From assembly GCA_041736305.1 (NCBI GenBank), contig JBGSTX010000209.1, forward strand, positions 1 through 15,858: DNA of 15,858 bases, given 5' to 3'. Shown here in pieces: positions 166 to 15,160 of the stretch (its first letter is position 1; each line of letters opens with the position of its first letter). Made by a program: the position numbers and the translations under genes. The notes beneath the pieces are model-generated. The model ran no database searches. It was not told the origin of the DNA and saw only the letters and a list, made by a program, of their open reading frames with translations. This DNA comes from Oligoflexus sp. GTDB lineage: Bacteria; Bdellovibrionota_B; Oligoflexia; Oligoflexales; Oligoflexaceae.

Positions 166-567
166 TTATTGGGGACGCCGCTGTTCAGCGGTCTCTACGC
201 ACTTGGCGTAACCGCGTGCCTCATTGATGAAATTCGCTCTCAGAGGCGCAGAATAGGTCTCGTTAAAGAGGTTCATGCTGCGAGGATGTTTGTAGATGAA
301 CTGCATCCAGCGGATATGCGCCTTGGAGCGAACGAAAGCTTTGAGGCTTTCCTCCGAATCCCAATAGCTGATTAGCAAGACCTCGAAGGGGCCAGCGATA
401 CCCGGCAAAGCTTGGCTGCATCCAGGGGCTCGCTTGGTCTTCCAGATAAAAAAGAAAATATGAGTCCAGAGAAAGATGAAACCGAAGAGATTGCGGCTCG
501 AAAGACCTATAATGAGGGTCAAGTCTCGAGCACCTTCTAGCCGGACTTCCGTGTGCAGCTTAGCCAT
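166..567 (-). CDS. DUF4188-like dimeric alpha/beta-barrel (ABM-like) putative monooxygenase
   Basis: Motifs LIIGL near the N-terminus, ISYWDSEESLKAFVRSKAHIRW and FNETY resemble DUF4188/antibiotic-biosynthesis-monooxygenase folds. ATG at 567 is better spaced from AAGGA than the track start at 576. Last gene of the PKS operon. Confidence 0.6.
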   Translation of the reverse strand: MAKLHTEVRLEGARDLTLIIGLSSRNLFGFIFLWTHIFFFIWKTKRAPGCSQALPGIAGPFEVLLISYWDSEESLKAFVRSKAHIRWMQFIYKHPRSMNLFNETYSAPLRANFINEARGYAKCVETAEQRRPQ

Positions 568-588
568 GCTTTGCATCCTTTTTCAGTC

Positions 589-1866
589 TTACCAGGAATA
601 AGTTACGCGGGCCGACAGAATCTCCCGCTCATCGAGCAGTAGCTTTGGGCTACTGGTCTCGGCATAGGTCCTCTGAAATTCGCCCGTTACCGTGATATTC
701 TCTGCAGCGTTCCAGAGCAGGATGGCTCTGATCATCTCATCTTCGCTATTGATACCACGCAGGTAGAATAGCTGCGGTTCGATGAGATAATTGAAGTAGT
801 TGAGATTGGCGGTGGCACCAACCCAGTTGAAGTGCTTCTGATCTTTTGACTCTTTCACGAAGGCGCCATCGGTAAATGCTTCGGGACCTTTCTCCCAAAG
901 ATCGAAATGAAACTCAGCTCCGAAGCTCTGTTGGCCATCTGTCGTCCAGTTTGCTCCGAAGATGCCCTGCGTGAGTCCGCTCCTTTCAACCTTAGCCGAG
1001 ACGCTGGTCGCGGGATAGTTGTTATGATGGACGAGGTCAGCGCGAGCGAGCCAATTAAATCCTGCGTAGGACATAGTCATAGCCGTAGATTCAACCTGAC
1101 GCTCGTCGATAATCACATCCTTGTCATCCGCAAAGGCATTGAAGCGATAGCTTGGAACCCGAGGCCAGTGCTTCCAGTAGTAGAGCTTGGTATCGATACC
1201 GGCTAAAATCAGTCCGACCCGTCCACCCTGCTCTGAATCCTGGCCCATCTTGTAGTCTCGCTTATCGGATATTCCAAAATCTCCGACTTCGTCAGGCTGT
1301 TTGTTGGCCAGCGGTAGGGGAACATAGATGAGCTGATAGTTGAATTCACTACTTTGCCACTCGAGATTGATCATCGGCGAGGGGTTCTTAGCGGCGGGAT
1401 CGTAGTACCCACGAGAATGGGTCAGATCGCGAGGGTTGACCAGATCGAGAATCGGCATTAAGAGATTTTCACCCCAGGTGACTTCCTGCATCCCTAGCCC
1501 GAGTTTATAAGATCCCCATGATTTAGCAGCATAGGCAAGAAGCTTGTCGACGTTATCCGAATCGACATCTTCATAGTTCTTATTATCGACGAAGTCGACA
1601 ATCAGGCGGTATTGTAGGTTGAAGCGCCAAGCTTCTGCTTCGTCCTGAAAGGACCACTGATGCTGCTGACTGAGGAAAAGCACGGCATGACTGGTTTCAC
1701 CGACATCCAAGGCCTGCGTATGTTCATAGCCCGCTTCGCTAGAAAGCCGCCCGAACAGGCCAATGTCTGGCTTTTTTGCCGACACGGAGCCCTCTCCATC
1801 CGCGGCGCAGAGGCTGGAGGGAGTGTTTAAGAAGACTATAATGAGACTGGTGCGGAACTTTTTCAC
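589..1866 (-). CDS. Predicted outer-membrane beta-barrel protein (DUF1302/porin-like)
   Basis: GTG start, signal-peptide-like N-terminus, motif GMQEVTWGE...DLVNPRD typical of barrels found beside lipoprotein-sorting proteins, alternating amphipathic strands, and a C-terminal aromatic residue (ARVTYSW). Lies 20 bp downstream of the preceding gene. Confidence 0.7.
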   Translation of the reverse strand: MKKFRTSLIIVFLNTPSSLCAADGEGSVSAKKPDIGLFGRLSSEAGYEHTQALDVGETSHAVLFLSQQHQWSFQDEAEAWRFNLQYRLIVDFVDNKNYEDVDSDNVDKLLAYAAKSWGSYKLGLGMQEVTWGENLLMPILDLVNPRDLTHSRGYYDPAAKNPSPMINLEWQSSEFNYQLIYVPLPLANKQPDEVGDFGISDKRDYKMGQDSEQGGRVGLILAGIDTKLYYWKHWPRVPSYRFNAFADDKDVIIDERQVESTAMTMSYAGFNWLARADLVHHNNYPATSVSAKVERSGLTQGIFGANWTTDGQQSFGAEFHFDLWEKGPEAFTDGAFVKESKDQKHFNWVGATANLNYFNYLIEPQLFYLRGINSEDEMIRAILLWNAAENITVTGEFQRTYAETSSPKLLLDEREILSARVTYSW

Positions 1867-1886
1867 AGGCTATCCAATGGCTGCGC

Positions 1887-2582
1887 TCAGTTCAGACTAT
1901 TCTGACTGAAAAAGCTTTCAGGAAACTTCTTTTCTTCCATGAGCTGAATCTGCAGGGTGGATTTCTCACCTTTTTTCGCAGCATTTTCGATCACAATCCG
2001 CGTCGGTCGGAGGGCACCTGCCATCGGCTTGTACTCGGTAAAGGTGACAAACTTGAGCACCTTCTCCTGCTGGGTGAGATACTCGCCACGGACCGGCGCA
2101 TAAGTCTTCTTACTGATCCAGACTCGAATTTTGTCGTAAGTCAGGCCCCGACGCTTCGCCGACAAAAACAACACAAATTCCTCGGGTGTTTCACTTTCGA
2201 GCTTCGCATCGTAATCGCCGAACCAGCGCATCCGACTGATATCGCCGTTAGCCGCCTGACCCGTGAGCTTCTGGTTGAGAGTCACGCGAACCGAGCGCTT
2301 GATATTGGGTATGAAAGCCCACATATCTTCATTGAGCATGAGGTAATTCTTGCCATTCTCGCGCTTAGGCTCGAGAGTCCTAATAATAGACGCGTCCTTG
2401 CCGCCGATGGAGATCTCGAAGCGAAAGTGGCTATCGTCGGTCGAGTCTACCGTGACTTCCATGCGATAAGAGTTGGAAGGGCTCCTGATTTCATCAGCCT
2501 TTTTCAAGATTTCGGCGGCATTCTCGGCGGCGACTCCCGTCGTAGATGAGAGAAGACCGATGAACAAAATCCAGGTTTTCAT
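1887..2582 (-). CDS. Outer-membrane lipoprotein-sorting protein (LolA-like periplasmic carrier)
   Basis: Signal peptide MKTWILFIGLLSSTTGVAA. Family motifs ILKKADEIR, EPKRENGKNYLM, MWAFIPNIKRSVRV, QKLTGQAANGDI, TYDKIRVWI and PESFFSQNSL. RBS AAGGGG; 12 bp after the PKS stop. Confidence 0.85.
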   Translation of the reverse strand: MKTWILFIGLLSSTTGVAAENAAEILKKADEIRSPSNSYRMEVTVDSTDDSHFRFEISIGGKDASIIRTLEPKRENGKNYLMLNEDMWAFIPNIKRSVRVTLNQKLTGQAANGDISRMRWFGDYDAKLESETPEEFVLFLSAKRRGLTYDKIRVWISKKTYAPVRGEYLTQQEKVLKFVTFTEYKPMAGALRPTRIVIENAAKKGEKSTLQIQLMEEKKFPESFFSQNSLN

Positions 2583-2594
2583 TTTGTCGTCCCC

Positions 2595-5500
2595 TTATTT
2601 AGCTGCTTTGTCCGGCTTCTGAGCCATCTTTTCCGTCAGGTGAATTTCGACCGTTTTAACTACAACTTCTAGTATTTTGGCTGGAAGATCAGCCGATATC
2701 TTGTTGCCTTCTTCGTTGTTCTTCGCCCAGATTACGCTGTGTTCACCGATCGCAAGTTTTTCTGGTGCGCCGCCATGCTCGCTGTCTTTGAAAAACTCAA
2801 AGTAGAGGTCGAGTCCTTGGCTATGGATGGCCTTGACAGCCATGGAAACTCGGATCTTGTCAAAGGGCATAGCTTCCCTCAGATGCTGTATCCTAGCTTT
2901 CACACAAGTGAGTTCGCCATCTTCTCCGATACCCCGGTATAACTGCGGAACTATGTTCTGAAAGAATTCATCCCTCAGCTTGCCCATCCAAATCGAATAA
3001 TTGCCGAAGTAAAGGTTACCGACCAAATTCGCATCGAAGAGACCCGTCTCATAGACCTTCTCAGCGAGTGGCACCGAGCTGCTCGGTCCTTGCGGAGCTG
3101 TGAATAGAGTCTCGCCCTTCGAGAGCGTACGATAAGGTTCTGGTGCCGGGACGTAGGTGTCCTTATTGTCGTTTTTAGCCACCATACTTGCGATGAAATC
3201 TTTGTAATAGTCGGGGAACTCAGCCGGGCGTACGATCCCATGATCCAGAATCTCGACCCAGGTAAATCCCATCTGACCCGTAGCGATGCGCTCCTCGATC
3301 TGGTCCGGTCCACGGGAGACCCAGTCGAAGTTAAGGGTAGCTGAAGAGTTCTTCGATCCAGTGATCTTACCGCACCACATGCGCGCTTCAACGATACGTT
3401 CACGGTTGCGGCATTCTCCGAGCACTTCTATGCTCGACCAGTTGGTTACTAGACCCCAGCGACCGGTCTCGGTCAGCTCTCTGATTCCGTCTAGCACCGG
3501 AATCGAGGACATTTCGCGTGAAAGTCCCATCCAGTTGAAGAAGTGCGAGAAATAGATCGAACGGTTGAGGTTCGCGAAGGTCTTAAAATCCGGAATGAAG
3601 CGATGGACGAAGACCGACTGCCCTTGTGGTCCATTAGGCTCAGCGTCGATGCGCAGAAGACTGGCTGTTGCCCGGTAGGGATTCAGCAATGGATTGTGGG
3701 CATCTGTCGGAACCACCGCCGCAGCTGGCAGCGCTGCCGATTGGCCGATCTGGATGAGATCCATGGCCTTAGGCAGCTGCAGACGTTTTTCGAGGAACTG
3801 AAGACGATAGTTTTCCATTCGTTCAAGCAGCTGGCCAGACTTATCGAAGACGTCAACCGTCGCGAGATAGGTCTTAGCATCGGCTTTGTGCACGTCGGTG
3901 AAGCTGATGCGATCAAGGACGTCGCGATGCCCACGGAAGAGCGTGATGCGTTCTATCTCGATAGGCAGACACTGATTCTGCGGGATGATGATTTGCGCCG
4001 ATTGGAGCAGAGAATCCCTGAAAAATGGATCACCGAGAAGGTGTCCTTTCAGATGCTGAGGTTCGGCCCGCGAACGGAAAACCGTGCAGCCTTCCGTCTC
4101 ATTATCAGACTCGAGGTGATAGATGTCCTCAATCCTTTGGAACATCGGCCCCTGGAAGAGAATGCTCCCATAGAGCTGCTTCATAGGTTCAATCGCTAGG
4201 CGAGAACTGAAAGTAGGAACTCCTACAACAGCTCTTCTATCGCTAGCCCTCATGATAAAATCAGCTGCGAAGTGATCGTACTTGAATCCTGTCAGAGCCG
4301 TACGGATACCTGTTTTAACGCGGATGCTGCCGTCGCTTTCGGGACGTTCACAGGCTTCAGCATAGATCTCAATGTCGACCCCTTGTGCACCGACCGTAAT
4401 CGGACGGGAGAGCTGAATATTCTCGAGGATACAGCTATCTTGGCCGCTGAGATCGAAGAGGGTATTCACCACTTGCGCCATGGCCTCAAGACCATAGACG
4501 GTCGGCATGAGGAAAGCGCCTTTGTAGTTGTGGTCTTTGAGGTAACTATGACTATCCAAGGTCAGCTTTGTTCTCGCGATCGCTTCGACGTCGCGCTGGT
4601 AGTGCAAGAGCTGCTCAATGAAGGACACGGTAAAATTCTGCGGTGGCAGGATAGCGACTTTGTCGCCGATATCGCCAAGCCTTGAGCTGATAACCGACTG
4701 CTGATCCGGAGCCTTGGCATCGGCTAAGTCCATAAACCTTTGCACGCCTTGCTCAGGAGCGATCGAACCGATACCCTTGCTCTCGAGATTTTTGTCGCTT
4801 CCCATGCGAGCGCCCATGCCGACCTCTGCCCATACACTATAGGCCAGAGTCTGGGTCTGAGCCTTTGGATGGGCTTTGCCGTAGCGACGAATCATGAGGT
4901 CGAGGGTCTCATTGGCGAAACCGTACCAAGCATTGCCCGGCATACCGGTCACACCGATGACGGACGTAAGGCCGATGACGAGTTTAATGGAGTCCTTGGT
5001 CGTCGCCTGAAAGAGGTTCCACATCCCCTTTACTTTAGGGGTCATTTCACTGAGCGCACTCGCGGCGTCGACAGTCGAAGCCGGACGCGGCTTATTTATG
5101 CCTGCCCCATGTACGATCCCGCTGATCGGACCTAGCTCGGCACGAATGCGGTCCACCATCTGCCCGACATCATGGGCATTGCCGATATCGCAGCTATAAT
5201 AGCGGGCTTCGAGTTTGAGCGCGCGGTATTGTTCGAGAGTTGCGGTGATCGGATGCTCTTTGTTGCTTTCGTCTTCCTTCGAAAGCGGTGACGAACCTAT
5301 CAAGGCCATCTTCACCTTGTGCTTTTGCGCGAAGGCCAGAGCGCAGGCGGCTGTAATTCCTTTTGCACCCCCAGTAACAAGTATCACATCCTTTTTGTTC
5401 CAGGAGATATTGCGAGCTTCATAGCTCTGCGGCTGTTCAGCCAGCAGCTCAGGTACATATCGAACCCCCTTCTTATCGAAGCCACTGACCCGGATGGTGG

Positions 5501-8500
5501 CTGGCTCTTTCCAGCTATCAAGGAGCTGACTGAGGCAGAGGGAGAGATCGCTCACTTGGCTGAAAGACAGCGCTCTGATCTTGAGATCGCTGCGTTCATG
5601 AGCGAGGCTTTGAGCAAAAGCTTTGGCGCTGCTAATCGGTGCGGCTTCCGAACTATGGCCGAAGCGGCCGTCATCGATCTGGACAAAACTAATCGTTTGA
5701 CCCTTCTTCCAGCGTCCTTGGGCGATGGCGCTCAAGATTCTGACCCGCTCGTTGAGAGCGTCGTTGAAGTCTTCAGCTTTCGGGATAGGTAGAAGGACGA
5801 TGACTAGATCGGCGTCCAGAGCCTGCACCTGAAAGCTGCTCTCCGGCGCTGAACAGAAAGAGCTGCGGGCCACTGCGCCCTGAGATTCGAGAGAACTTTG
5901 GACCTGCTCGACCCAAGCTTGGTCGCGACTAGAGGCCACAATTTGTACGACAGCCTGATTCCAGGACTCAGAGGTCTTGGGCAGCTTTGTCTCGGTAAAT
6001 ACTTCTGTGAAGTTTCTGACCCATGGGGCCCTATTTTTACTCTTCGAAACTTCGGCTACCATAGGTGCGGCGGGCGCCACCGCTTTGGCTTTAGGAGCTG
6101 CCTCGGGAAGGACCTGCAAACTAGCTGAAGAGCTCACAAGTGGCTCTTTTTGTACCGACGAAGCTGGTGCCTGAGGACTATCCGCAGACAGGCCTTTCTC
6201 AGCTAGCTTGTCGCGAATCGCTTGGGCGATTTCTCCGATCGAAGCGTTGGCGAAAGCAGCGAGCTCGAGCTCCCCAGCGATTCCATAGTGCATGCTAGCG
6301 TTGGCGACCAGTTCACTGGCTTTAATTGAATCGAGGTTCAGGTCATCGAGAACGCGCATCTCGGGTTTGAGGGTCGCGGCTTCGAAGCCGGTGAGACTTT
6401 CTATCACACCGAAAAGGACTTGCTCTACCGAACTAGCCGGCGCCACAGCTGCTGGTGCTGGTGACGTCGAAGTCACTTCAGCGGCACGTTCAGCTACAAT
6501 CGGAAGCGAAGCAGCAATGGGTAAAGTCTGAACTACTGGAGCGGTGAATCCTAGGGAAGCTCCCGGAACCTGCGCTACTGTAAGAGGTCGTTCCGTAGGG
6601 CTCTCGATAAATTTTTTCTCATCAGGCCGCACGAAGGGACGCACGAAGCGGTGGCGATAGAGCTCTTCCCAACGTACCTGTGAGCCTTTAGTATAGCTGA
6701 TGGCGAGAATAGCTTTGTACTCAGCATCATAGCCGGGCCTACTTTCGCTCGGCCAGCACAGGGTCTGCGTGCTGCTGCTGTTGATGCGTTTGAATAAGCC
6801 GCTTAAGATTGCCGACGGACCGATCTCAAAGACCAGATCCGCTTCTTGCTGTACTGTCTTCGCCAGAGCCACAAAATCTACCGGCTCGATGATCTGCTGG
6901 GCCAGATAAGCGTTGAGATCCGAAGCAGCATCGAAGAGCTTACCGTCGGTTCCCCGGACAAATTTTAGTTCAGGACGAGCGAACTTAATGTCCTTCATAA
7001 ACGCAGCGAAAGCTGTCGCCGCTTCGTCCATGTAGGAGGAATGAAAAGCGTTGGACACCGGCAGAGGGCCGGCGCGTAGATTTTTAAGTTTAGCCAGTTC
7101 GAGAATCTTATCCAAAGCCTTCACGTCGCCCGAGAGGATAGTCTGATCCGGGGCGTTGATATTGGCAACGGTCACATAGCCGTCCACTTCTTTGATAAGG
7201 CTTTCGGCTGTCGCTTGATCGCAGGCAAGGTGAATCATACCGCCCGGACGATCGGCGCGGTTGGCCATCAGGGCTCCGCGTTTGCTGGCAAGTTTGATCA
7301 GAGTCGGAAAATCGATAGCTTTGGCGGCGAACAATGCGCTGAGTTCACCTAGACTATGCCCAGCGACGACGCTGGGATTGATGCCGAAGCGCTGCATGGC
7401 TTCTAGCCAGAGGACGTTGCTCAAAGTAATCGCGGGTTGTGCCATTTCAGTGAGCGATAGCTTTTTCAGCTGCTCTTCATCGTGCCGGTAGCTTTCCGTG
7501 AACAGACAATCGCTGAGAGGGGTCGCATTATACTCCCGCACGATGCTCTCTGCCCGCTCGAGCCTGTCTTTCGCCCAATCGAAGCGGCGAATAAGCTTTT
7601 TGCCCATATTCAGCTTTTGCGCACCCTGACCGGGGAACACAAAGGCTATACGGGGTGGCTTGTTGCTAAAGCCGAGACTGATAAGAGTGGATCCCTCGAG
7701 GCTTTCTCGGGTCTCATTGGCTTTTAAAGGTGTTTCGAGCCACTTAGCTAGCTTGCTGAGAGCCTGGAAGGCGTCTTCTGGCTTTTGAACAACCACAGCG
7801 GCGCGATAGTTCTCGTGCCCTTTCGCAAATCGCGAAAGATCGGCGGCAAGGTCGAGCAGCTCGGCCCGACTGATGCGGCGAACATAGGCAAGCGTTTGCT
7901 GAATCTTACGCTCAAGCGCCGTCTGTGATGGCGCCGAGAAAACCAGAACCTCACCACGATCGTGGGAGCTGAGTAGGACTTTCTCGTCTGCCGAAGGACG
8001 CAGGTTCTCTTGCACCTGACCATAGCTCTCCATGGTCACGTGGGAGTTGATACCGCCAAAGCCCATTGCGGAAAGACCGGCTCGCATAACTGCGTTTTCA
8101 GGGCGTTTGTACCCCTCGATCAGCGGCGTGAAGAAGCGGGCTTTCCCACTGAAGAGATCACTGAATTCTTCAACCCCAGCCATCGGCGGAGCGACCCGCT
8201 GATTGACGCCTATGACGGTTTTGATAAAAGCACCGATTCCGGCAGCAGCTTTGGTGTGCCCAACGATAGACTTGAGCGAGGTGATACCGATGTTTTGCGC
8301 CGGCACCCCATCTCCTAACGCTTCGACCATGGCCGAGACTTCGATCTTGTCCCCGACTGTCGTTCCCGTTCCATGACCTTCAATAAAATCGCAATCTTTG
8401 AGCTGATAGCCCGACATACTATAGGCTTTAGAAATGGCGCTCGCCTGACCAGCGACTGAAGGGGCCGTGAGTCCGCCTTTGCCGTCTGAAGATATGCCCC

Positions 8501-9422
8501 AGCCTTTGACGACGGCATAGATCTTGTCGTTGTCCCGGATCGCGTCTTCGAGTCGCTTCATGATAACGAATCCGCAGCCTTCGCCCGGAATAAATCCATT
8601 GGCGCGCTTGTCGTAGACCCGCATTTCATCGGGGGTGAGAGCCCCCGTCTTTGCGAAACCGATAAGCTCAAAGGTATCAAGACTGATGTCGATCCCGCCA
8701 GCGAAAGCGACATCGAGTTCGCCTTCGGCGAGATTGCGTGCCGCTGTAATAACAGCGATGAGCGACGATGCACAAGCTCCGTCGACCGTATACCCTCCGC
8801 CGTGGAGATCAAGAAAATTACAAACGCGGCCGGCGATAGTGTTCGATAGTGCGCCGGCGAGGGTATCTTCGGTCACGGGAGGAAAAACGGATTTAAAGGT
8901 TGGTTCGACAGCCTGTATGTAGGCTTCAAGGGCCGGTCCACTCATGCCCTGAGCTTTGCCGGTCTCGCGCAGGACTTTAGCGAAATAAGGCCAGCGCATG
9001 CGCATGGCGTTGGTACGGGTCCATTCACCAGTCAGAGTATTGCCAAGTATAACGCCGGTATTGATTTTTTGTAGTTTTTCAAGGGAAAGTCCTGAATCTT
9101 CGAGGGCTTTCAACGCTACGTCGAGAGCCATCCACTGCACGATATCGGTACCGTCGACAGTCTTCTTGGGTATGCGCTTCTCTTTCCAATCGAAGTCGTA
9201 ACCGTCGATAACACCAGCTTCAGTTCCGTAAGTCTTATCGGGAACTGACTTATCAGGTGAATAGTATTCCGCGTGAGGTAGGCGCTCGTCGGGCATCCTG
9301 CGGAACTGCTGGCGCTTAGCTAGGATATTCTCCCAAAACTCAATCAATGATTGCGCCCCGGGGTACCAGCAAGACATTCCAACTACAGCAATTCCAAGAT
9401 TTTCGCGCTTCTTACCCGTCAT
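2595..9422 (-). CDS. pksE: Iterative type I polyketide synthase, enediyne PksE-like: KS-AT-ACP-KR-DH plus two fused hot-dog thioesterases; no PPTase domain
   Basis: KS: DGACASS (Cys217), EGHGTGT, KSIVGHTK, plus the PksE-typical GNTLTGEWTRTNAMRMRWP. AT: FPGQG, GHSLG (Ser690), NAFHS (malonyl type). Single ACP: DDLNLDSIK (Ser1032). KR: TGGAKGITA, HGAGINKP, YGFAN. DH: LKDHNYKGAFLMP (His1631), DSLLQ. TE1: IYFSHFFNWMGLSRE. TE2: NLVGNLYFGNYSIWMGKLRD. RBS AAGGAG. The symbol refers to the enediyne-type pksE, not Bacillus pksE. Confidence 0.92.
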   Translation of the reverse strand: MTGKKRENLGIAVVGMSCWYPGAQSLIEFWENILAKRQQFRRMPDERLPHAEYYSPDKSVPDKTYGTEAGVIDGYDFDWKEKRIPKKTVDGTDIVQWMALDVALKALEDSGLSLEKLQKINTGVILGNTLTGEWTRTNAMRMRWPYFAKVLRETGKAQGMSGPALEAYIQAVEPTFKSVFPPVTEDTLAGALSNTIAGRVCNFLDLHGGGYTVDGACASSLIAVITAARNLAEGELDVAFAGGIDISLDTFELIGFAKTGALTPDEMRVYDKRANGFIPGEGCGFVIMKRLEDAIRDNDKIYAVVKGWGISSDGKGGLTAPSVAGQASAISKAYSMSGYQLKDCDFIEGHGTGTTVGDKIEVSAMVEALGDGVPAQNIGITSLKSIVGHTKAAAGIGAFIKTVIGVNQRVAPPMAGVEEFSDLFSGKARFFTPLIEGYKRPENAVMRAGLSAMGFGGINSHVTMESYGQVQENLRPSADEKVLLSSHDRGEVLVFSAPSQTALERKIQQTLAYVRRISRAELLDLAADLSRFAKGHENYRAAVVVQKPEDAFQALSKLAKWLETPLKANETRESLEGSTLISLGFSNKPPRIAFVFPGQGAQKLNMGKKLIRRFDWAKDRLERAESIVREYNATPLSDCLFTESYRHDEEQLKKLSLTEMAQPAITLSNVLWLEAMQRFGINPSVVAGHSLGELSALFAAKAIDFPTLIKLASKRGALMANRADRPGGMIHLACDQATAESLIKEVDGYVTVANINAPDQTILSGDVKALDKILELAKLKNLRAGPLPVSNAFHSSYMDEAATAFAAFMKDIKFARPELKFVRGTDGKLFDAASDLNAYLAQQIIEPVDFVALAKTVQQEADLVFEIGPSAILSGLFKRINSSSTQTLCWPSESRPGYDAEYKAILAISYTKGSQVRWEELYRHRFVRPFVRPDEKKFIESPTERPLTVAQVPGASLGFTAPVVQTLPIAASLPIVAERAAEVTSTSPAPAAVAPASSVEQVLFGVIESLTGFEAATLKPEMRVLDDLNLDSIKASELVANASMHYGIAGELELAAFANASIGEIAQAIRDKLAEKGLSADSPQAPASSVQKEPLVSSSASLQVLPEAAPKAKAVAPAAPMVAEVSKSKNRAPWVRNFTEVFTETKLPKTSESWNQAVVQIVASSRDQAWVEQVQSSLESQGAVARSSFCSAPESSFQVQALDADLVIVLLPIPKAEDFNDALNERVRILSAIAQGRWKKGQTISFVQIDDGRFGHSSEAAPISSAKAFAQSLAHERSDLKIRALSFSQVSDLSLCLSQLLDSWKEPATIRVSGFDKKGVRYVPELLAEQPQSYEARNISWNKKDVILVTGGAKGITAACALAFAQKHKVKMALIGSSPLSKEDESNKEHPITATLEQYRALKLEARYYSCDIGNAHDVGQMVDRIRAELGPISGIVHGAGINKPRPASTVDAASALSEMTPKVKGMWNLFQATTKDSIKLVIGLTSVIGVTGMPGNAWYGFANETLDLMIRRYGKAHPKAQTQTLAYSVWAEVGMGARMGSDKNLESKGIGSIAPEQGVQRFMDLADAKAPDQQSVISSRLGDIGDKVAILPPQNFTVSFIEQLLHYQRDVEAIARTKLTLDSHSYLKDHNYKGAFLMPTVYGLEAMAQVVNTLFDLSGQDSCILENIQLSRPITVGAQGVDIEIYAEACERPESDGSIRVKTGIRTALTGFKYDHFAADFIMRASDRRAVVGVPTFSSRLAIEPMKQLYGSILFQGPMFQRIEDIYHLESDNETEGCTVFRSRAEPQHLKGHLLGDPFFRDSLLQSAQIIIPQNQCLPIEIERITLFRGHRDVLDRISFTDVHKADAKTYLATVDVFDKSGQLLERMENYRLQFLEKRLQLPKAMDLIQIGQSAALPAAAVVPTDAHNPLLNPYRATASLLRIDAEPNGPQGQSVFVHRFIPDFKTFANLNRSIYFSHFFNWMGLSREMSSIPVLDGIRELTETGRWGLVTNWSSIEVLGECRNRERIVEARMWCGKITGSKNSSATLNFDWVSRGPDQIEERIATGQMGFTWVEILDHGIVRPAEFPDYYKDFIASMVAKNDNKDTYVPAPEPYRTLSKGETLFTAPQGPSSSVPLAEKVYETGLFDANLVGNLYFGNYSIWMGKLRDEFFQNIVPQLYRGIGEDGELTCVKARIQHLREAMPFDKIRVSMAVKAIHSQGLDLYFEFFKDSEHGGAPEKLAIGEHSVIWAKNNEEGNKISADLPAKILEVVVKTVEIHLTEKMAQKPDKAAK

Positions 9423-9460
9423 CTCTCTTGCTCCTTAACCTTCGTATGAGGCAGGTCTAT

Positions 9461-9494
9461 CCCTCAGCTGATCTGCAAGCAGCTCAGCTAAGAG
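9461..9494 (-). promoter_or_regulatory. Stem-loop in the putative 5' leader of the PKS operon
   Basis: AGCTGA(9466-71)/TCAGCT(9484-89) with inner CTG/CAG. Flanking C/A mismatches on + become G-U pairs on the minus-strand RNA. Confidence 0.45.
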
Positions 9495-9531
9495 GAACGA
9501 GGCCTTATTCGGATCGATTCAGTGGTCGACT

Positions 9532-9548
9532 ATGCAAACGCCAAGCCA
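9532..9548 (-). promoter_or_regulatory. Putative sigma54 (-24/-12) promoter for the PKS operon
   Basis: Minus strand reads TGGCTTGGCGTTTGCAT, i.e. GG-N10-GC with a TTGCA -12 box, about 110 bp upstream of the PKS ATG. Confidence 0.55.
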
Positions 9549-9906
9549 TATGTTTAAGCCCTTTCCAGGCACAGACTGCGCTCGAGCCGAAAAAAAATTC
9601 GAAAAGTATCAATGCCCTACTGGTGCCACAAATTTTTTACTTTTCTAGGCTCAGAAGTGCCCCCCCAGCTAAAACCCTGGAGGATCGCGGCACTAATTCA
9701 TTTTGTCCGATCGGCACTACTGAAATTTTTATGAGTAAAATGGGTGTCAGAGTTCTAGACCGTCAAAATTATTGCCGAATAAGTCGAAAGCTAGTTTATG
9801 CTGTCCAAGAATTGCTGAGTCTGGATTTGGGCAATTCGATGTTTTGAGGCCTGGGGCTTAGAAGGAGCTTAGGCGGCTAAAGCGGACGAGGTCACCTCTG
9901 TTAGTA

Positions 9907-9912
9907 TATAAT
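9907..9912 (+). promoter_or_regulatory. Possible sigma70 -10 box for the ABC operon
   Basis: Perfect TATAAT 37 bp upstream of ATG 9950, with RBS AGGAGG at 9940-9945. No convincing -35 box. Confidence 0.35.
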
Positions 9913-9949
9913 CGATCCATGCTGACTTTGAAGCGGCCTAGGAGGAACC

Positions 9950-10666
9950 ATGGGTGAGAGTCCAGGGACGGCAGTATTCCAGTGTTCTAAACTGATCTTT
10001 TCCTACAAAAGTCCGCAAGGTCCAACTCGAGTACTCGATGGGATAGACCTTACCGTTGAGAGCGGTGATTTTATATGCCTGACCGGTCCCTCGGGTTCTG
10101 GAAAATCGACCTTACTCAATCTCCTGGGCCTCATAGAAGCACCGCAGGAAGGCCAGTTTATGTTTCAGTCGAAAGCCGTAAACGGCCTAGCTGAAAAAGA
10201 TCTCAATTGGATTCGACGCTATAAAATAGGCTTCATTTTCCAAGATTTTCAACTGATAGAAGTCCTCACCGTAGAGGAAAATGTCGAGTACTTTCTCACG
10301 CGGCAAAAGGTTCCCCCCGTCGAACGCCAGCAGCTAGTTGAATTGGCCCTTCATGAAGTTGGACTGTGGACCCATCGAGAAAAACGCCCTTCTCAGCTCA
10401 GCGGCGGCCAAAAGCAGCGCGTGGCTATCGCGCGGGCCCTTGCCAAACGCCCCGCCGTGATTATAGCGGATGAACCCACGGCAAGTCTCGACCTCACGAC
10501 AGGCAGAACTGTTATGGACGTCCTGAAGAAGCTGAATGAGAAGTTAGGAGTAACCATCGTCCTAGCCTCTCACGACCCCATGGTGTTGGAATATGGGAAG
10601 ACCGAAATTAAATTAAGAGAAGGTCGGATATTGAGCCAGCAAGGAGCTAGACGCGATGTTAGCTAA
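9950..10666 (+). CDS. ABC transporter ATP-binding protein, LolD/MacB family
   Basis: Walker [16 protein letters not shown]-loop, signature LSGGQKQR, Walker B IIADEPT, H-loop ASHD. Strong RBS. Confidence 0.95.
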
Positions 10667-11861
10667 GTTCGCTGTTCGTAATGTAAAGAGAAACCGCCGT
10701 CGCTCGATAGTAGCTGTCGGTACCATCGCGGTCGGCGTATTCGGGCTGCTATTCCTCCAAGGCTTCTTCTCCGGCCTCATCTCGCTGCACACTGAAAACT
10801 CTATCCACTCGCGTTTCGGCCACGGTCAGGTCATGACGAAGAACTACTGGGGCCAGGCCTTTGAGAAGCCCTATGAGCACTGGATAGCCAACCCAGCTGA
10901 AGTGATGGCCGACCTGGAGAAAGACCCCGGCGTGTATGCTGTCTTTCCCAGAGTGCAATTCTTCTCCCTCCTGAGCAACGGCAGTATCAATGTCGCAGGC
11001 CGTGGTCAAGGGGTCGTCGGCGAGAAGGAAAAAGACTTTTTTGATAAAATGAACTTCGTCCAAGGCGAAGCGATCGGCTCCAAAAAAGACGGCATAGTCC
11101 TCGGAATAGGAGTTGCAAGGGCACTTGGAGTAAAACTAGGTGATTCGGTCACAGTCCTAGGGCAAACTGTCCACGGATCGATTAATGCTATCGATACAGT
11201 AGTAAGCGGAATCTTTCATGTCGGCATGAAAGAGGCCGATGACTCGCTTTTTCAGGTTCAGCTGAGCCAGGCCCATGTTCTTCTCGATACCAGCGCGGTC
11301 GAATCGATAACGATCGGCCTTTCGGACCCTAGCAGCTGGAGCCGCGTAGCCAGGAACATTGAAAAGGCCCACCAGGAACTCGAAGCTATACCCCTGCACA
11401 TACTGGATCAGGTCTGGGCTGAGAACGGCGAAAAGTTTCTTAAGGCCCTGCTCAATATATTTCGTCTGACCTTTTTAGGCATGATCATGCTCGCCATCTA
11501 TAACAGCGCTTCCAATACTGTCCTCGAGCGGAAGCGCGAACTAGGCATGCTTCGCGCCAACGGCGAGTCGGCTGGCGATCTCGTGCGACTGCTGCTTATC
11601 GAGGGGCTGGTCCTGGCCAGCTTAGGCGCTCTGATCGGAGCAGGACTGACTCTCTTAGCGGATCAGCTCGCAGGATCTGGACTGCCTATGCCTCCCACTC
11701 CAGGGACTAATCGTGAGCTTCCTGTAAAACTGGACCTGCGCTTATCCTATTTCGCTGTTGCCATCGCATTAGGCGTTGCCACCTCTCTGATTGCAACTCT
11801 GCTTTCGACTTTACAAGTACTTAAGCTCTCGATAGTGCAAGCTATCCGAGCCCCTCAATAA
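10656..11861 (+). CDS. ABC transporter permease, FtsX/MacB/LolCE family
   Basis: AVRNVKRNRRRS N-terminus, one TM helix, large periplasmic domain, ERKRELGMLRANG motif and three C-terminal TM helices. Overlaps the ATPase gene by 11 nt (translational coupling). Confidence 0.93.
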   Translation: MLAKFAVRNVKRNRRRSIVAVGTIAVGVFGLLFLQGFFSGLISLHTENSIHSRFGHGQVMTKNYWGQAFEKPYEHWIANPAEVMADLEKDPGVYAVFPRVQFFSLLSNGSINVAGRGQGVVGEKEKDFFDKMNFVQGEAIGSKKDGIVLGIGVARALGVKLGDSVTVLGQTVHGSINAIDTVVSGIFHVGMKEADDSLFQVQLSQAHVLLDTSAVESITIGLSDPSSWSRVARNIEKAHQELEAIPLHILDQVWAENGEKFLKALLNIFRLTFLGMIMLAIYNSASNTVLERKRELGMLRANGESAGDLVRLLLIEGLVLASLGALIGAGLTLLADQLAGSGLPMPPTPGTNRELPVKLDLRLSYFAVAIALGVATSLIATLLSTLQVLKLSIVQAIRAPQ

Positions 11862-11867
11862 TTCTTG

Positions 11868-11895
11868 AGAAAGGTAGCCAGAGCTGCCTTTCTTC
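11868..11895 (+). terminator. Probable intrinsic terminator of the ABC operon
   Basis: AGAAAGGTAGC-CAGA-GCTGCCTTTCT hairpin (one U-G pair) starting 6 bp after the permease stop, with a T-rich 3' side. Confidence 0.65.
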
Positions 11896-12083
11896 CTGAC
11901 ACTTCTTCGAATTTTTGAATAGAAATTGGATTGGCTGCACTCGCGTCTGAAAACTTCGGATAAGATCAATACTTTCATATTTTTATGATTGAAGTACTTC
12001 AAGTGAGCTGCAAAGAGACTTTCCTGGCGCAAGGATGCCAACTGTAATTTTTGCCGTTCTATAAATCACTATTTTTACAGCTG

Positions 12084-12113
12084 TTGTCTAAGTTCATACT
12101 CGCTTGTCTAAGT
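12084..12113. repeat. Direct repeat TTGTCTAAGT x2 (20-bp period), possible activator-binding site
   Basis: Exact 10-mers at 12084-12093 and 12104-12113 in the AT-rich intergenic region, about 170-200 bp upstream of a sigma54-like motif. Confidence 0.5.
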
Positions 12114-12282
12114 GTGTGCACAAGTTTGAAATCTGCTGTCACTTTTAAAAAAAGTGTAGAAATTTAGTTTTTCTTATTTAATTCAGAGATTTAACTCGAA
12201 AATGGCTTTGGTGTGTAGAGGAATCCGACAGATGGCGTCTGTGACGTCAGCGGCAATCATTGGGTTTTCGGGCACCGCCCTT

Positions 12283-12298
12283 TGGAACGGCATTTGCT
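12283..12298 (+). promoter_or_regulatory. Putative sigma54 (-24/-12) promoter for the lipoprotein array
   Basis: TGGAACGGCATTTGCT, i.e. GG-N10-GC close to consensus TGGCAC-N5-TTGCW, 36 bp upstream of ATG 12335. RBS AGGGGA at 12321. Confidence 0.65.
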
Positions 12299-12334
12299 TA
12301 TACTATGCAACAACTCCAACAGGGGACTTTATAA

Positions 12335-13237
12335 ATGAGAAGTAAAATTTTAGTGGCTACTGCTGTGCTTTCCGCACAGTTTGCATGCAAAAAGAACAAT
12401 GATCTCCCTTACAGCACGTCCCAAGTCTCGGCTATGTCGATGGAAGCTAAAGGCTTCTCTTCTCATGAAAGTAGCCAAGTAAATGAAGTCGCCGCACCGA
12501 GCGTAGGTGCGAATCTCGCTTTACCAGCGCGCAATACTTTGCCTATTTCGCCCGCTACTTGGTGTGAAGGCAGTCTAAATGCACTTAAAATCAGCAAACA
12601 GGCGATTACCGCAGAGCTGGCAGCGCTCTGTACCGGAGCCACTCCAACAGCGCGCTTTGCGACTCTCATTAACTCAGCCTATACCGGGACCGGTGAAGCG
12701 GTTATTACTCCTATCAGCGTCGGTATGGTAGGAAGCGATGTTCAACTCTTCGTTGCCTATGCGATGAAGCTGAATAAGCCAGCGGTTCAGACTCTCTTGG
12801 GTGAAGAAAAACACGTTCCATCAGGCTACGACGTTGGTGACCTGAAGATCGTTCCAAAATTCGTTAACCCGCCCCCTCTTAATACAGGTGACTGCGATAC
12901 GGCCTTCTACGTCGACCAGTACACTGAAGTAAACGATGTCATCGACTTTAAAGAGACTTCCAAGAATGAACTGAAGATGTATCGCCTTCACCCGAACAAC
13001 TTCGATTTCTTCATGGCCGCTCGTACCCTGGTTGCACCGACTGAACAATTCCGTAAGGCAGTGGTTATGCGGGCGATCATGGCTGATCCGGCAGACCCTA
13101 AGAAATCGATAGCTATCTCCGTACTCAACTTTGTTATGAACGATAGAAACGGCAACGGCGACAATGTTCGAGCGACTTTCGAAAGATTTATCGAGGCAGA
13201 TTTCCTGGCTCTTTACAAAAGTCAAACCACTAACTAA
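12335..13237 (+). CDS. Putative lipoprotein of unknown function (paralog 1)
   Basis: Signal MRSKILVATAVLSAQFA-C, low-complexity tether, Cys pair WCE...ALC, and SAYTGTGE motif shared with the next gene. Confidence 0.8.
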   Translation: MRSKILVATAVLSAQFACKKNNDLPYSTSQVSAMSMEAKGFSSHESSQVNEVAAPSVGANLALPARNTLPISPATWCEGSLNALKISKQAITAELAALCTGATPTARFATLINSAYTGTGEAVITPISVGMVGSDVQLFVAYAMKLNKPAVQTLLGEEKHVPSGYDVGDLKIVPKFVNPPPLNTGDCDTAFYVDQYTEVNDVIDFKETSKNELKMYRLHPNNFDFFMAARTLVAPTEQFRKAVVMRAIMADPADPKKSIAISVLNFVMNDRNGNGDNVRATFERFIEADFLALYKSQTTN

Positions 13238-13274
13238 GTAATCCGGCGTGAGTTCGCCGCTTTGGAGAATTACA

Positions 13275-14195: not shown

Positions 14196-14236
14196 TCAAC
14201 TAGAAAATTTTAAATAGTTCAAAGGGGTACGCCATC

Positions 14237-15133: not shown

Positions 15134-15160
15134 GCTTTAACGGCGCGAGAGGCTTGTACA

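Follow-up and report, generated by a model that had tools for sequence, protein, structure and literature searches.

A PKS of the enediyne type with a fused thioesterase and linked envelope genes in Oligoflexus sp., a candidate polyene synthesis and delivery system

The question raised by this locus is whether a synthase of the enediyne-PKS (PKSE) superfamily, encoded beside Gram-negative envelope genes, belongs to an enediyne pathway or makes a polyene that is moved across the envelope. The window, which is the whole stretch of DNA analysed, is one complete contig of 15,858 bp from an Oligoflexus sp. assembly of 392 contigs (genome 92.7% complete). A preliminary description had listed a PksE-like synthase with LolA-like, barrel, ABC transporter and small oxygenase-fold neighbours. 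All six genes are confirmed, coordinates included, within positions 166-11861. The features of the window are:

166..576, minus strand: af470-like/ABM-fold (DUF4188-type) protein, 136 aa; PF13826 Monooxy_af470-like E 4.9e-07, ABM E 6.7e-4
589..1866, minus strand: outer-membrane beta-barrel related to DUF1302, 425 aa; signal peptide, C-terminal W
1887..2582, minus strand: periplasmic LolA_like carrier, 231 aa; signal peptide, PF17131 E 8.3e-38
2595..9422, minus strand: iterative type I PKS of the PKSE superfamily, 2275 aa; KS-AT-ACP-KR-DH-hotdog1-hotdog2(TE)
9423..9949, no strand: divergent intergenic region between the PKS and ABC operons, 527 bp
9950..10666, plus strand: ABC ATPase of the LolD/DevA/MacB type, 238 aa; PF00005 E 3.6e-33
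10656..11861, plus strand: Type VII ABC permease with MacB_PCD and FtsX domains, 401 aa; PF12704 and PF02687
12335-13237, 13248-14195, 14237-15133 and 15161-15856, plus strand: four paralogous predicted lipoproteins, the last cut by the contig end

The af470-like, barrel, LolA_like and PKS genes lie on the minus strand, and the ATPase and permease genes diverge from them on the plus strand. Four same-genus genomes have an identical gene order and orientation, with protein identities of 46-71%. The order is also found in other genera, except for the small oxygenase-fold gene. Because the same genes, order and orientation recur within and beyond the genus, the arrangement exceeds chance. The neighbourhoods of PKS homologues were surveyed at 11 loci in as many other genomes of the phylum. 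One or more export genes adjoin the PKS at nine of these loci, which bears out the earlier expectation of conserved synteny, and six loci contain the barrel, LolA_like, ATPase and permease genes with their order kept. Counted singly, the LolA_like and ATPase genes each adjoin the PKS in 8/11 loci and the barrel gene in 7/11. No export genes are found near the PKS at loci L009 and L015, so the synthase can exist without the export module. Occurrence is patchy, with the system in 14 of 131 phylum genomes and in 7 of 13 within the genus. No published description of this gene combination was found in the literature searched.

In the divergent intergenic region a single promoter-like match lies on the minus strand (9932-9903), but the frequency of promoter-like sites in 9423-9949 is not above that in shuffles. 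An ORF at 9347-9847 (plus strand) overlaps the PKS start, has no family match and is probably not a gene. A protein of ~500 aa is conserved adjoining the cluster in three relatives and has no orthologue in the window's assembly, so the cluster may continue past base 1.

The domains of the PKS are:

8022..9392, minus strand: KS, residues 11-467; PF00109/PF02801
6774..7643, minus strand: AT, residues 594-883; PF00698 E 7.4e-33, FabD model E 1.9e-58
6216..6416, minus strand: single ACP, residues 1003-1069; PF00550 E 0.0021, below cut-off
4875..5387, minus strand: KR, residues 1346-1516; PF08659 E 5.4e-28
3783..4592, minus strand: DH, residues 1611-1880; PF21089 and PF14765
3213..3620, minus strand: first hotdog unit, about residues 1935-2070; SgcE10 BLASTP over 1951-2050, E 0.007
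2688..3074, minus strand: second hotdog, a thioesterase of the SgcE10/CalE7/DynE7 type, about residues 2117-2245; PF13279

The KS residues Cys217, His350 and His389 and the motifs DGACASS, HGTGT and GHTK were located. The AT contains GHSLGE with Ser690 and AFHS at residues 792-795, which we take to indicate a malonyl-type domain. Ser1032 of the ACP lies within NLDSI, and the domain falls at the position of the SgcE ACP in the collinear alignment. The DH motif HxxxGxxxxP is at residues 1631-1640. No ER domain was found in the PKS by Pfam domain search, so a polyene is the expected product. This agrees with characterised PKSE/TE pairs, in which KR and DH without ER, plus an E10-type thioesterase, are the linear-polyene set and are reported to give the C15 heptaene 1,3,5,7,9,11,13-pentadecaheptaene (PMC9992847). 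The PKS has no PPTase domain by Pfam search or SgcE alignment, and two stand-alone PF01648 (PPTase) matches occur elsewhere in the genome. The preliminary description had overlooked the loss of this domain.

Sequence comparison supports the proposed placement of the PKS among enediyne PKSs, apart from PfaA-like and modular KSs. A single collinear BLASTP segment (residues 11-1879, 33% identity) aligns it with SgcE over KS-AT-ACP-KR-DH. The KS is 49.9, 49.5, 49.2 and 46.9% identical to those of four reference PKSEs, each located in an E3-E4-E5-E(-E10) cassette. The two PfaA-like genes of this genome give 35.8 and 34.2%, and three of its other KSs give 28.8-30.2%. In the KS tree (61 rows), a 55-row clade with SH-aLRT 100 holds the window KS and the four cassette PKSEs; rows for PfaA-like, other PKS and FabF sequences are not part of it. 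Within this clade, the cassette-linked PKSEs form their own long-branched sub-clade (SH-aLRT 100), which excludes the window KS and is surrounded by many thioesterase-fused forms. Neither form can therefore be called ancestral, and the idea that an enediyne PKS was repurposed here, which implies a direction, is not supported.

The expected absence of E3, E4 and E5 held in the window and beyond it. DUF1702 (E3), SgcE4 and SgcE5 have no matches in the window's own genome, and E3 and E5 have none in four relatives, one of which is a single-contig genome. E4 gives two weak matches in these relatives (E 0.0024 and 0.0068). As a positive control, the C-1027 plasmid matched all three. No cassette genes occur in the full flanks of loci L005 and L010.

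The preliminary description had not noticed that an E10-type thioesterase is fused to the PKS C-terminus. The best PDB matches of the second hotdog are SgcE10 (4I4J, E 4.7e-11), CalE7 (1.9e-10) and DynE7 (1.9e-08), and its BLASTP identity to SgcE10 is 28.6%. All 12 sequences compared share N2132, Y2142 and R2150, which align with CalE7 N19, Y29 and R37, residues that we take to be catalytic. The first hotdog unit occupies the position of the PPTase domain in PKSEs; across 12 sequences its R1969 does not vary and its N1951 hardly does. The AF2 model of the C-terminus (pLDDT 79.3) has two hotdog units, the first a unit of helix plus sheet. Foldseek matches it best to double-hotdog acyl-ACP thioesterases (TM 0.66-0.74, target-normalised).

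The synthase thus resembles SgcE/SgcE10, CalE8/CalE7 and DynE8/DynE7 in its KS-AT-ACP-KR-DH order, KS clade, hotdog thioesterase type and lack of an ER. It differs in that its thioesterase is in cis, forming the second of two tandem hotdogs, there is no PPTase domain, no E3/E4/E5 partners were found, the host is Gram-negative with linked envelope export genes, and the KS is outside the cassette-linked sub-clade. The tandem hotdog C-terminus is shared with uncharacterised thioesterase-fused PKSE-like synthases (KS-AT-ACP-KR-DH-PPTase-hotdog-hotdog) of cyanobacteria, Methylobacter and others. Both hotdog units occur in 107 of 120 family proteins compared, whereas the PPTase domain is retained in 60/120 and lost in the window's sub-group (47/120). 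The one annotated example encountered, on a plasmid of Gloeothece PCC 7822, has its synthase split over two genes; its neighbours are three genes for halogenases and one for a carotenoid oxygenase, and not export genes.

The LolA_like carrier matches PDB 3BUU (NE2245; E 1.8e-41) and reaches none of the NCBIfam LolA-type cut-offs. The ATPase scores with the DevA (E 2.5e-57), LolD (2.5e-53) and FtsE models and the permease with the lolCE model (E 3.9e-24), in no case reaching the cut-off. The best PDB matches of the permease are LolE (5.9e-12) and LolF. Modelling of the LolA_like carrier with the periplasmic domain of the permease supports docking at a permease hairpin around residues 166-180; the runs share at least 96% of contacts, with a partner pLDDT of at least 91. 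The model scored 0.61, a mark attained by 58/80 solved complexes and 2/110 mismatched pairs, and the best of three controls scored 0.01. A solved LolA-LolC complex exists, and the score may stem from the predictor's memory of it, in which case it would indicate likeness and not binding. Relatives of the carrier have an ABC ATPase and/or FtsX-type permease adjoining in all six plasmid contexts examined, and FAS/PKS-type genes lie within 9 kb in five; related modules flank such clusters on plasmids of Proteobacteria. LolA_like/ABC modules also occur without a synthase, on the genome's own contig C57 beside an AcrB-type gene and on a Bdellovibrio plasmid, so the module is generic.

The window's own barrel protein has no Pfam match. 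Its relation to DUF1302 comes from homologues, 9/25 of which match PF06980 DUF1302 and two of which are named DUF1302. The AF2 model (pLDDT 86.2, pTM 0.81) has about 18 long strands, and Foldseek places it closest to AlgE, OmpF and Occ porins (E 5.6e-10 or weaker, TM about 0.5). The af470-like protein has an N-terminal hydrophobic stretch and no sequence relatives in the PDB. Its nearest Atlas cluster (score 0.95) has PF13826 in 89% of members. The gene adjoins the PKS in 4/11 related loci, all of the same genus, and its product is possibly a tailoring oxygenase.

Each of the four lipoproteins has a lipobox-like Cys after a signal peptide, and none has a Pfam or NCBIfam match. The same four genes follow the permease at locus L010, and one follows the PKS at locus L009. 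A second set of three lipoprotein genes is found on contig C97, away from any PKS. The lipoprotein genes are possibly accessory, and their membership of the system is uncertain.

The envelope genes resemble several known systems. Like LolCDE-LolA, they encode an ATPase, a permease with a MacB-type periplasmic domain and a LolA-superfamily carrier with a modelled contact via the periplasmic hairpin. Unlike LolCDE-LolA, there is a single permease gene instead of two, equivalog models are all below cut-offs, the distribution is patchy, a barrel replaces LolB, and the cargo is likely a polyketide. The DUF1302/DUF1329 pairs, P. putida PP_0765/0766 and AmeA/AmeB of Castellaniella, are described as an outer-membrane DUF1302 barrel plus a LolA-superfamily periplasmic protein in hydrophobic traffic, with RND/BNR partners and a DUF1329-type carrier, whereas the carrier here is PF17131 and the motor an ABC transporter. 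The barrel is 425 aa compared with 605 aa for AmeA and is not itself matched by the Pfam model. The DevBCA exporter beside the HglE PKS of heterocystous cyanobacteria likewise joins a PKS-made lipid to a DevA-like ATPase and an FtsX-type permease. It differs in that the window has no gene for a membrane-fusion protein (DevB) and has a periplasmic carrier and barrel instead.

The PKS may make a polyene while the ABC transporter, LolA_like carrier and barrel serve other ends (lipoprotein surfacing, uptake of hydrophobic substrates or general solvent efflux), with adjacency reflecting shared regulation or chance. The lipoprotein genes after the permease, here and at locus L010, the LolE and LolF relatives of the permease and the modules known without a PKS are all consistent with this explanation. 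Pseudomonas DUF1302/DUF1329 genes have fitness phenotypes on fatty esters and were read as esterases or outer-membrane biogenesis factors (bioRxiv 10.1101/2020.07.04.188060). Barrels of this type may work in another direction or on another cargo, a point against the export reading. AmeA/AmeB are reported alongside an RND monoterpene efflux pump (PMC6394551). However, the lipoprotein genes, as a set or in part, are found at only two of the 11 loci (L010 and L009), compared with nine for at least one export gene, and the triplet on contig C97 has no adjoining transporter. The patchy distribution indicates that the system is not a housekeeping Lol pathway, every Lol NCBIfam model is below cut-off, and the carrier relatives lie near other lipid or polyketide synthases in 5/6 contexts. 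Separate functions are unlikely.

Instead of being a free heptaene-type hydrocarbon, the product may end up as the lipid moiety of a bigger envelope compound, such as a polyene acyl chain carried by a lipid or by the lipoproteins encoded nearby. The Lol-like route would then have that conjugate as its cargo. Aryl polyene (APE), xanthomonadin and flexirubin clusters also combine a polyene synthase with a LolA-like chaperone and a dedicated outer-membrane route; aryl polyenes are bound to a lipid of the outer membrane, their clusters include LolA-like, LolB-like and lipoprotein genes, and a polyene anchor for the lipoprotein ApeA was raised as an idea by the authors (PMC8253772). The lipoprotein genes adjoining the permease gene and the conserved N1951 and R1969 of the first hotdog, where a second activity is possible, are congruent with a conjugate. 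APE systems rely on a type II (discrete) FAS-like synthase, aryl starter, lipid-anchor acyltransferases, RND transporter and LolB-like protein, whereas the window has one iterative type I PKS with an ABC transporter and beta-barrel and without attachment enzymes. No acyltransferase, glycosyltransferase or ligase gene was found in the window or, by Pfam scan of unknown ORFs, in the 11 related loci, and this thioesterase type frees the polyene in enediyne pathways. A conjugate appears rather improbable on this evidence. A true enediyne or other cyclised-polyketide synthase, with tailoring genes elsewhere in the genome or past the contig ends, is very improbable given the lack of cassette genes in this genome and four relatives with positive controls, the cassette-free flanks of L005 and L010 and the KS placement, even though the window ends with its contig in an incomplete genome, several homologues are named 'enediyne polyketide synthase' by JGI, and the ~500-aa neighbour lacks an orthologue.

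The preferred reading, with a probability of about 0.55, is a self-contained route in which a conjugated polyene is made and then moved across the Gram-negative envelope. A polyene bound for the outer membrane, rather than an enediyne antibiotic, is the most likely product. The compact synthesis and delivery system first proposed stands in that the domain set fits a linear polyene and the export genes are conserved. It does not stand as a system special to the PKS, since the module flanks other FAS/PKS-type clusters and occurs without a synthase.

Domain content and homology suggest that one of the two stand-alone PPTases would prime the PKS in trans and that the PKS would condense malonyl units iteratively, with ketoreduction and dehydration but no enoyl reduction in each round, to give an ACP-bound polyene. 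The tandem hotdog would release the chain and may decarboxylate it as in PKSE/TE pairs, by homology to SgcE10/CalE7/DynE7; chain length and decarboxylative release are extrapolated from actinomycete enzymes, to which the thioesterase is about 29% identical. The hydrophobic product would partition into the inner membrane and be extracted by the LolCDE/MacB-type ABC transporter, then handed via the periplasmic hairpin to the LolA_like carrier, as suggested by family, gene linkage and the complex model. Linkage suggests that the DUF1302-type barrel would receive it from the carrier, and that the product would then be inserted into the outer membrane or cross it. The af470/ABM-fold protein, found only in this genus, may oxygenate the polyene. 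We infer the polyene product, the direction of transport and the biological role; by analogy with aryl polyenes, the most likely guess is that the product would serve as a surface pigment or antioxidant.

In the assembly, the window is the whole of contig C30 of a 5.0-Mb genome (392 contigs, 92.7% complete). Among homologues that carry a name, the nearest belong to Oligoflexus tunisiensis, Oligoflexus sp. MAGs and Pseudobacteriovorax. Four minus-strand genes with short spacers between them are parted by a 527-bp gap from a divergent plus-strand pair.

Genes predicted in the window (coordinates, strand, product)
9422-2595, minus strand: polyketide synthase (PKS), 2275 aa
2582-1887, minus strand: LolA_like protein, 231 aa (PF17131, E 8.3e-38)
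1866-589, minus strand: barrel protein, 425 aa, with a signal peptide
576-166, minus strand: af470/ABM-fold protein, 136 aa
9950-10666, plus strand: ABC ATPase, divergent from the PKS
10656-11861, plus strand: MacB_PCD/FtsX permease, its ORF sharing 11 bases with the ATPase ORF
12335-15856, plus strand: four paralogous predicted lipoproteins of 300, 315, 298 and >232 aa

The four proteins encoded at 12335-15856 are predicted to be lipoproteins because each signal peptide ends in Cys. Family searches (Pfam, NCBIfam) with them return no match, and an Atlas search with lipoprotein g298 returns unnamed clusters only (0.90, low recognition). The same four genes come after the permease in a locus from another genus (L010), and one relative comes after the PKS in locus L009. 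A second set (n=3; 37-48% identity) is found on contig C97 of the same genome, where it adjoins a 7TMR-DISM histidine kinase with no transporter alongside. A 166-aa ORF at 9347-9847 on the plus strand covers the PKS start-codon region and extends across the divergent gap; the family search gives no match for it, and it is probably not a gene. Sites found in a promoter and terminator scan of the window are no more numerous than in shuffles.

By Pfam, the PKS contains KS, AT, ACP (weak), KR and DH domains and a C-terminal 4HBT_2 hotdog domain; ER and PPTase domains are absent (no PF01648 match). The KS motif residues (Cys217, His350 and His389), the AT motifs (GHSLGE and AFHS), the ACP serine (Ser1032), the glycine-rich motif of the KR and the HxxxGxxxxP motif of the DH are all intact. 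The order KS-AT-ACP-KR-DH on a single polypeptide is that of the enediyne polyketide synthases (PKSEs), both by Pfam and by collinearity with SgcE, which aligns with residues 11-1879 as a single BLASTP segment at 33% identity. This SgcE was retrieved by a tblastn search of plasmids and is encoded on the plasmid of the C-1027 producer in the context DUF1702-DUF1702-CRTAC1/UnbV-RnfD-like/UnbU-PKS, with SgcE10 further along. On three further Streptomyces plasmids, E3-E4-E5-PKS is followed directly by a thioesterase gene.

The KS of the window is 46.9-49.9% identical to those of the four cassette-linked PKSs, compared with 35.8% and 34.2% for two PfaA-like genes of its own genome, 28.8-30.2% for three other PKS-type KSs of that genome and 24.2% for FabF. 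Against the PfaA model TIGR02813, the window PKS scores 509.8 bits (cut-off 1010.1) in the KS-AT region only, SgcE scores 456 bits and the PfaA-like genes of the own genome score 820-926 bits. Tandem ACPs and a score above that cut-off mark PfaA, and the window PKS has a single ACP. A PUFA synthase is rejected on the KS identities, the KS tree and the single ACP. The PfaA-like KS-AT genes are located on contigs C102 (about 17822-22243) and C184 (about 14900-17683), and further PKS-type KSs on C346, C244 and C102. The genome is rich in lipid and polyketide synthases.

The KS tree contains 61 rows picked from the 115 of 132 candidates with a KS match; two fragmentary KSs of the own genome were left out and family rows were thinned to limit size. 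It was made with a quick IQ-TREE run (LG+G4) with SH-aLRT support only. One clade with support of 100 holds 55 of the 61 rows, made up of the four cassette PKSs, 50 proteins of the family and the window. The rows for PfaA-like genes, other PKSs and FabF fall outside this clade, in a tree where PfaA is represented by two own-genome genes only, HglE has no row and the outgroups carry long-branch warnings. Within the clade, a separate group on long branches (support 100) comprises the four cassette PKSs, and the window falls in a 13-row group of PPTase-less, hotdog-bearing proteins.

The enediyne cassette of E3 (DUF1702), E4 (UnbV/CRTAC1-like) and E5 (UnbU) is not present beside the window PKS. 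PF08012 (DUF1702, E3) and SgcE5 have no match in the own genome or in four relatives, one of which is a genome in a single 7.6-Mb contig; the C-1027 plasmid used as a control has two matches and one match. SgcE4 has no match in the own genome and one in the control; in the four relatives it has two weak matches (E 0.0024 and 0.0068), each elsewhere in its genome. The full cluster flanks in L005 and L010 contain no cassette gene. The preliminary description had called the synthase PksE-like and had seen no E3/E4/E5 among the window ORFs. The first claim is borne out by the identities and by a clade with SH-aLRT 100, in a tree without HglE, and the second now extends to the own genome and four relatives, with positive controls.

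The C-terminus of the PKS has a tandem hotdog structure. Its last 392 residues match SgcE10 (PDB 4I4J, E 4.7e-11), CalE7 (E 1.9e-10) and DynE7 (E 1.9e-08), so that an E10/CalE7/DynE7-type thioesterase is present as a fused domain. The plasmid-encoded SgcE10 aligns with residues 2121-2218 (E 9e-15) and weakly with residues 1951-2050 (E 0.007). An AF2 model of the region (12 sequences from the window and related loci, taken as DNA references; pLDDT 79.3) has two helix-on-sheet hotdog units. In Foldseek it matches the double-hotdog acyl-ACP thioesterases 4GAK, 2OWN and 2ESS and plant FatA/FatB, with TM-scores on target length of 0.66-0.74. All 12 sequences share N2132, Y2142 and R2150 of the second unit, which align with N19, Y29 and R37 of CalE7, which are reportedly its catalytic residues (Kotaka et al. 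2009). In the first unit, N1951 is nearly invariant and R1969 is invariant across the 12 sequences; by our own reading, this unit appears to have Phe where the second has Tyr.

A C-terminal phosphopantetheinyl transferase domain is listed as a PKSE feature (PMC9992847). The PPTase region of SgcE aligns over about 228 residues with 2600-aa relatives of the window PKS. Against the close relatives of Oligoflexia type, only the first 76 residues of the SgcE C-terminus align, which are the end of the DH, and against the window PKS itself there is no match. When 120 family proteins are sorted by C-terminal make-up, 60 have the first hotdog unit, PPTase and thioesterase; 47, including the window PKS, have the first hotdog unit and thioesterase without PPTase; one has PPTase and thioesterase; six have PPTase alone and six have none of the three, in a sample skewed to thioesterase-bearing forms because the query was the DH-to-end region. 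The own genome has two stand-alone PF01648 PPTase genes (contigs C116 and C108), which could allow priming in trans.

Matches to the PKS with E of 1e-150 or lower are present in 14/131 genomes of the phylum (own genome included), in 11/21 of the family and in 7/13 of the genus, so the distribution is patchy. For 11 of these 13 other genomes, a 20-kb region containing the match was searched with the window proteins (tblastn at E 1e-5 or better and ORF-level BLASTP). The remaining two (G069 and G071) were left out because the PKS gene fills or overruns short contigs.

Window genes found around PKS homologues in other genomes of the phylum
L005-L008 (same genus): ABM-fold, barrel, LolA_like and PKS genes with divergent ATPase and permease genes, in the window's order
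L010 and L011 (other genera): as the window, without the ABM-fold gene
L012: PKS, ATPase, permease and a LolA_like gene truncated where the contig stops
L014: barrel, LolA_like and a PKS that runs off the contig
L013: ATPase, permease and a split PKS
L009 and L015: PKS with no export gene beside it

At least one export gene lies beside the PKS in 9/11 loci, LolA_like in 8/11, ATPase plus permease in 8/11 and all four export genes in 6/11; these counts are not independent because the genomes are kin. Export genes are kept beside homologous PKSs, the synteny for which the preliminary description had proposed a search (at least one in 9/11 related loci). The flanks of L009 contain housekeeping genes and a secretin. 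In L013, the carrier and barrel are absent from the remaining 2.9 kb, and a 2.5-kb insert (10086-12472, contig C65 of genome G038) splits the PKS into DH-upstream and DH-downstream parts. The insert has two opposite-strand ORFs with weak AAA-ATPase matches, so disruption by a mobile element is possible.

A protein of about 500 aa with a weak PSCyt3/DUF1588 match adjoins the cluster in L005 (787-2295), L010 (2391-3920) and L013 (12-1544), with 51-61% mutual identity. In the own genome, only paralogues of 25-29% identity are found (contigs C16 and C294). Since the contig stops at the left end of the window, the orthologue may lie past that point. The ABM-fold gene of O. tunisiensis is followed by one for a DUF2141 protein (L005 3884-4330, E 8.4e-33). 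The window shows no such gene, as only 165 bases of contig remain after its own ABM-fold gene.

The LolA_like protein matches the uncharacterised LolA-superfamily protein NE2245 (PDB 3BUU, E 1.8e-41). The best solved relatives of the permease are LolE and LolF, and the ATPase scores alike against DevA, LolD, FtsE and MacB models. All NCBIfam equivalogs are under their cut-offs: the permease has 85.3 bits against the lolCE model (cut-off 362.45), the ATPase has 180.8 bits against LolD (cut-off 307.75) and 194 bits against DevA (cut-off 295.8), and the LolA_like protein has 20.1 against the LolA3 family (cut-off 83). The housekeeping Lol pathway is rejected on these sub-threshold scores and on the patchy distribution. 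A DevBCA-type exporter is rejected for want of a membrane-fusion protein; no HlyD-type (DevB-like) protein occurs among the window ORFs.

The make-up is that of a type VII ABC transporter (MacB_PCD plus FtsX) with a LolA-superfamily carrier, whose docking on the permease is predicted by a complex model. This model pairs the periplasmic domain of the permease (residues 40-262) with LolA_like in its mature form (residues 20-231), and alignments served as input for both. Its median score is 0.61, whereas the highest of three controls scores 0.01; 58/80 solved complexes and 2/110 mismatched pairs reach the same mark. Agreement between runs is 96% of contacts or more, with a partner pLDDT of 91 or higher. 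The modelled interface comprises permease residues 107, 166, 168, 173-180 and 208-211 and carrier residues 51 and 74-107, and it resembles the LolC 'hook' inserted into LolA. A LolA-LolC complex of this kind has been solved; the score may therefore reflect that structure having been learned by the predictor, and it speaks for likeness and not binding. With this qualification, the model supports a predicted binding of the LolA_like protein to the periplasmic domain of the permease.

The barrel protein has no Pfam match at E 0.01 or better, PF06980 included. Its 25 homologues are apparently all of Oligoflexia type; nine of them carry PF06980 (DUF1302) and two are named DUF1302. A search of genomes with the barrel alignment finds five loci, all in Oligoflexia-type records, which has no bearing on other phyla. 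The AF2 model of the 425-aa protein (27 sequences) has about 18 long strands (pLDDT 86.2, pTM 0.81), and Foldseek matches it to AlgE, OmpF-type and Occ porins. DUF1302 barrels partner LolA-superfamily DUF1329 proteins in Pseudomonas and Castellaniella, in a role debated among export of envelope components, esterase and monoterpene efflux (bioRxiv 10.1101/2020.07.04.188060; PMC6394551).

Relatives of the window LolA_like protein are present on 32 plasmid records. In all six contexts examined, the gene adjoins an ABC ATPase and/or FtsX-type permease gene (in Haematospirillum, a permease fragment only). In 5/6, an unannotated protein of 388-480 aa comes after LolA_like; Pfam matches are found in 0/5 tested. 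Homology of these proteins with the window barrel is unsupported (hhalign probability at most 5.5% in the three tried; BLASTP E 0.046). FAS/PKS-type genes are found within 9 kb in 5/6 contexts; the Bdellovibrio context has none within that distance. The Rahnella and Enterobacter plasmids carry KSs, malonyltransferase, ACP, FabZ, SDR, aminomethyltransferase and holo-ACP synthase genes, a set that resembles the cyl (granadaene) operon and may be its Gram-negative counterpart. The E. coli G8 plasmid carries SDR, ACP, KS-like and crotonase genes, the Haematospirillum plasmid a crotonase gene and the Aliiroseovarius plasmid two KS genes 5 kb away. The type II FAS-like clusters of Rahnella sikkimica (NZ_CP019063.1, L031/L029) and Enterobacter bugandensis (NZ_CP110986.1, L032) are accompanied by ABC ATPase, permease and LolA_like genes and a protein of 453-462 aa.

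A second set in the own genome (L038, contig C57, 8121-13565) has ATPase, FtsX permease, LolA_like and second FtsX permease genes. It includes a 438-aa protein and adjoins an AcrB-type RND gene, with no synthase nearby. From the plasmid contexts and this synthase-free set, the module is therefore a reusable cassette that often, but not invariably, accompanies genes for making lipids or polyketides. Among plasmid relatives of the PKS, the best (41.9% identity) is in Gloeothece verrucosa PCC 7822 (NC_014533.1, 316173-342464). Two genes encode it, one for KS-AT and one for the part from SDR to thioesterase; after them come three genes of the tryptophan-7-halogenase type and one for a carotenoid oxygenase. 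These neighbours hint at a halogenated or cleaved polyene.

A PKSE and its thioesterase make 1,3,5,7,9,11,13-pentadecaheptaene from an ACP-bound 3-hydroxy-hexadecahexaenoyl chain (PMC9992847). Aryl polyenes are described as reaching the outer membrane via cluster-encoded Lol-like proteins (PMC8253772). In the proposed mechanism, the window PKS would make a polyene comparable to the PKSE/thioesterase product, the ABC transporter would pull it out of the inner membrane, the LolA_like carrier would ferry it across the periplasm and the barrel would receive it; the ABM-fold protein may modify it. We hold this whole chain of steps to be slightly favoured, at a probability of about 55%.

The closest known systems differ from this cluster. 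Enediyne cassettes combine a PPTase-bearing synthase with a separate thioesterase and E3-E5, and they lack an export module; the window differs on each point. Aryl polyene clusters rely on a type II synthase and also encode attachment enzymes, a LolB-like protein and an RND transporter; the LolA-like element alone is common to them and the window, in which discrete KS/CLF, ACPs, acyl-ACP synthetase, acyltransferases and RND transporter are all absent. DevBCA has a membrane-fusion protein, unlike the window, and DUF1302/DUF1329 sets have an RND partner. The parts are of known kinds, and their combination appears to be new. Searches of the literature, with subscription journals mostly outside their coverage, found no description of a PKSE-type synthase with LolA-like/ABC export genes or in Oligoflexia, and nothing joining 'enediyne polyketide synthase' with 'LolA' or 'enediyne' with 'Oligoflexus'.

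A broader reading is speculative and, taken jointly, rather unlikely. Under it, four genes (LolD-type ATPase, single LolE/MacB-type permease, PF17131 LolA_like protein and outer-membrane protein of about 400 aa) would be a general, undescribed route from inner to outer membrane for hydrophobic small molecules, not lipoproteins. Lineages would plug in different polyene or lipid synthases, such as the PPTase-less, self-releasing PKSE-thioesterase fusion here and a cyl/granadaene-like type II system in Enterobacterales plasmids. Outside actinomycetes, the large family of PKSE homologues with a fused thioesterase would be devoted to making free polyene hydrocarbons for the envelope.

To our knowledge, nearly all that is known of enediyne-type PKSs concerns their role in starting the synthesis of DNA-cleaving antitumour antibiotics in actinomycetes. 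The cluster suggests a second, simpler use of enediyne-PKS chemistry in Gram-negatives, in which a fused synthase-thioesterase is joined to a Lol-like route. The whole cluster is present in Oligoflexus tunisiensis Shr3 (L005/L024), a cultured species. If true, this second use would give a product class to more than 100 proteins whose current annotation is either 'enediyne polyketide synthase' or 'SDR family oxidoreductase', and it would caution genome miners that a PKSE match does not equal an enediyne. It would also provide a tractable case of a very hydrophobic small molecule handed across the periplasm.
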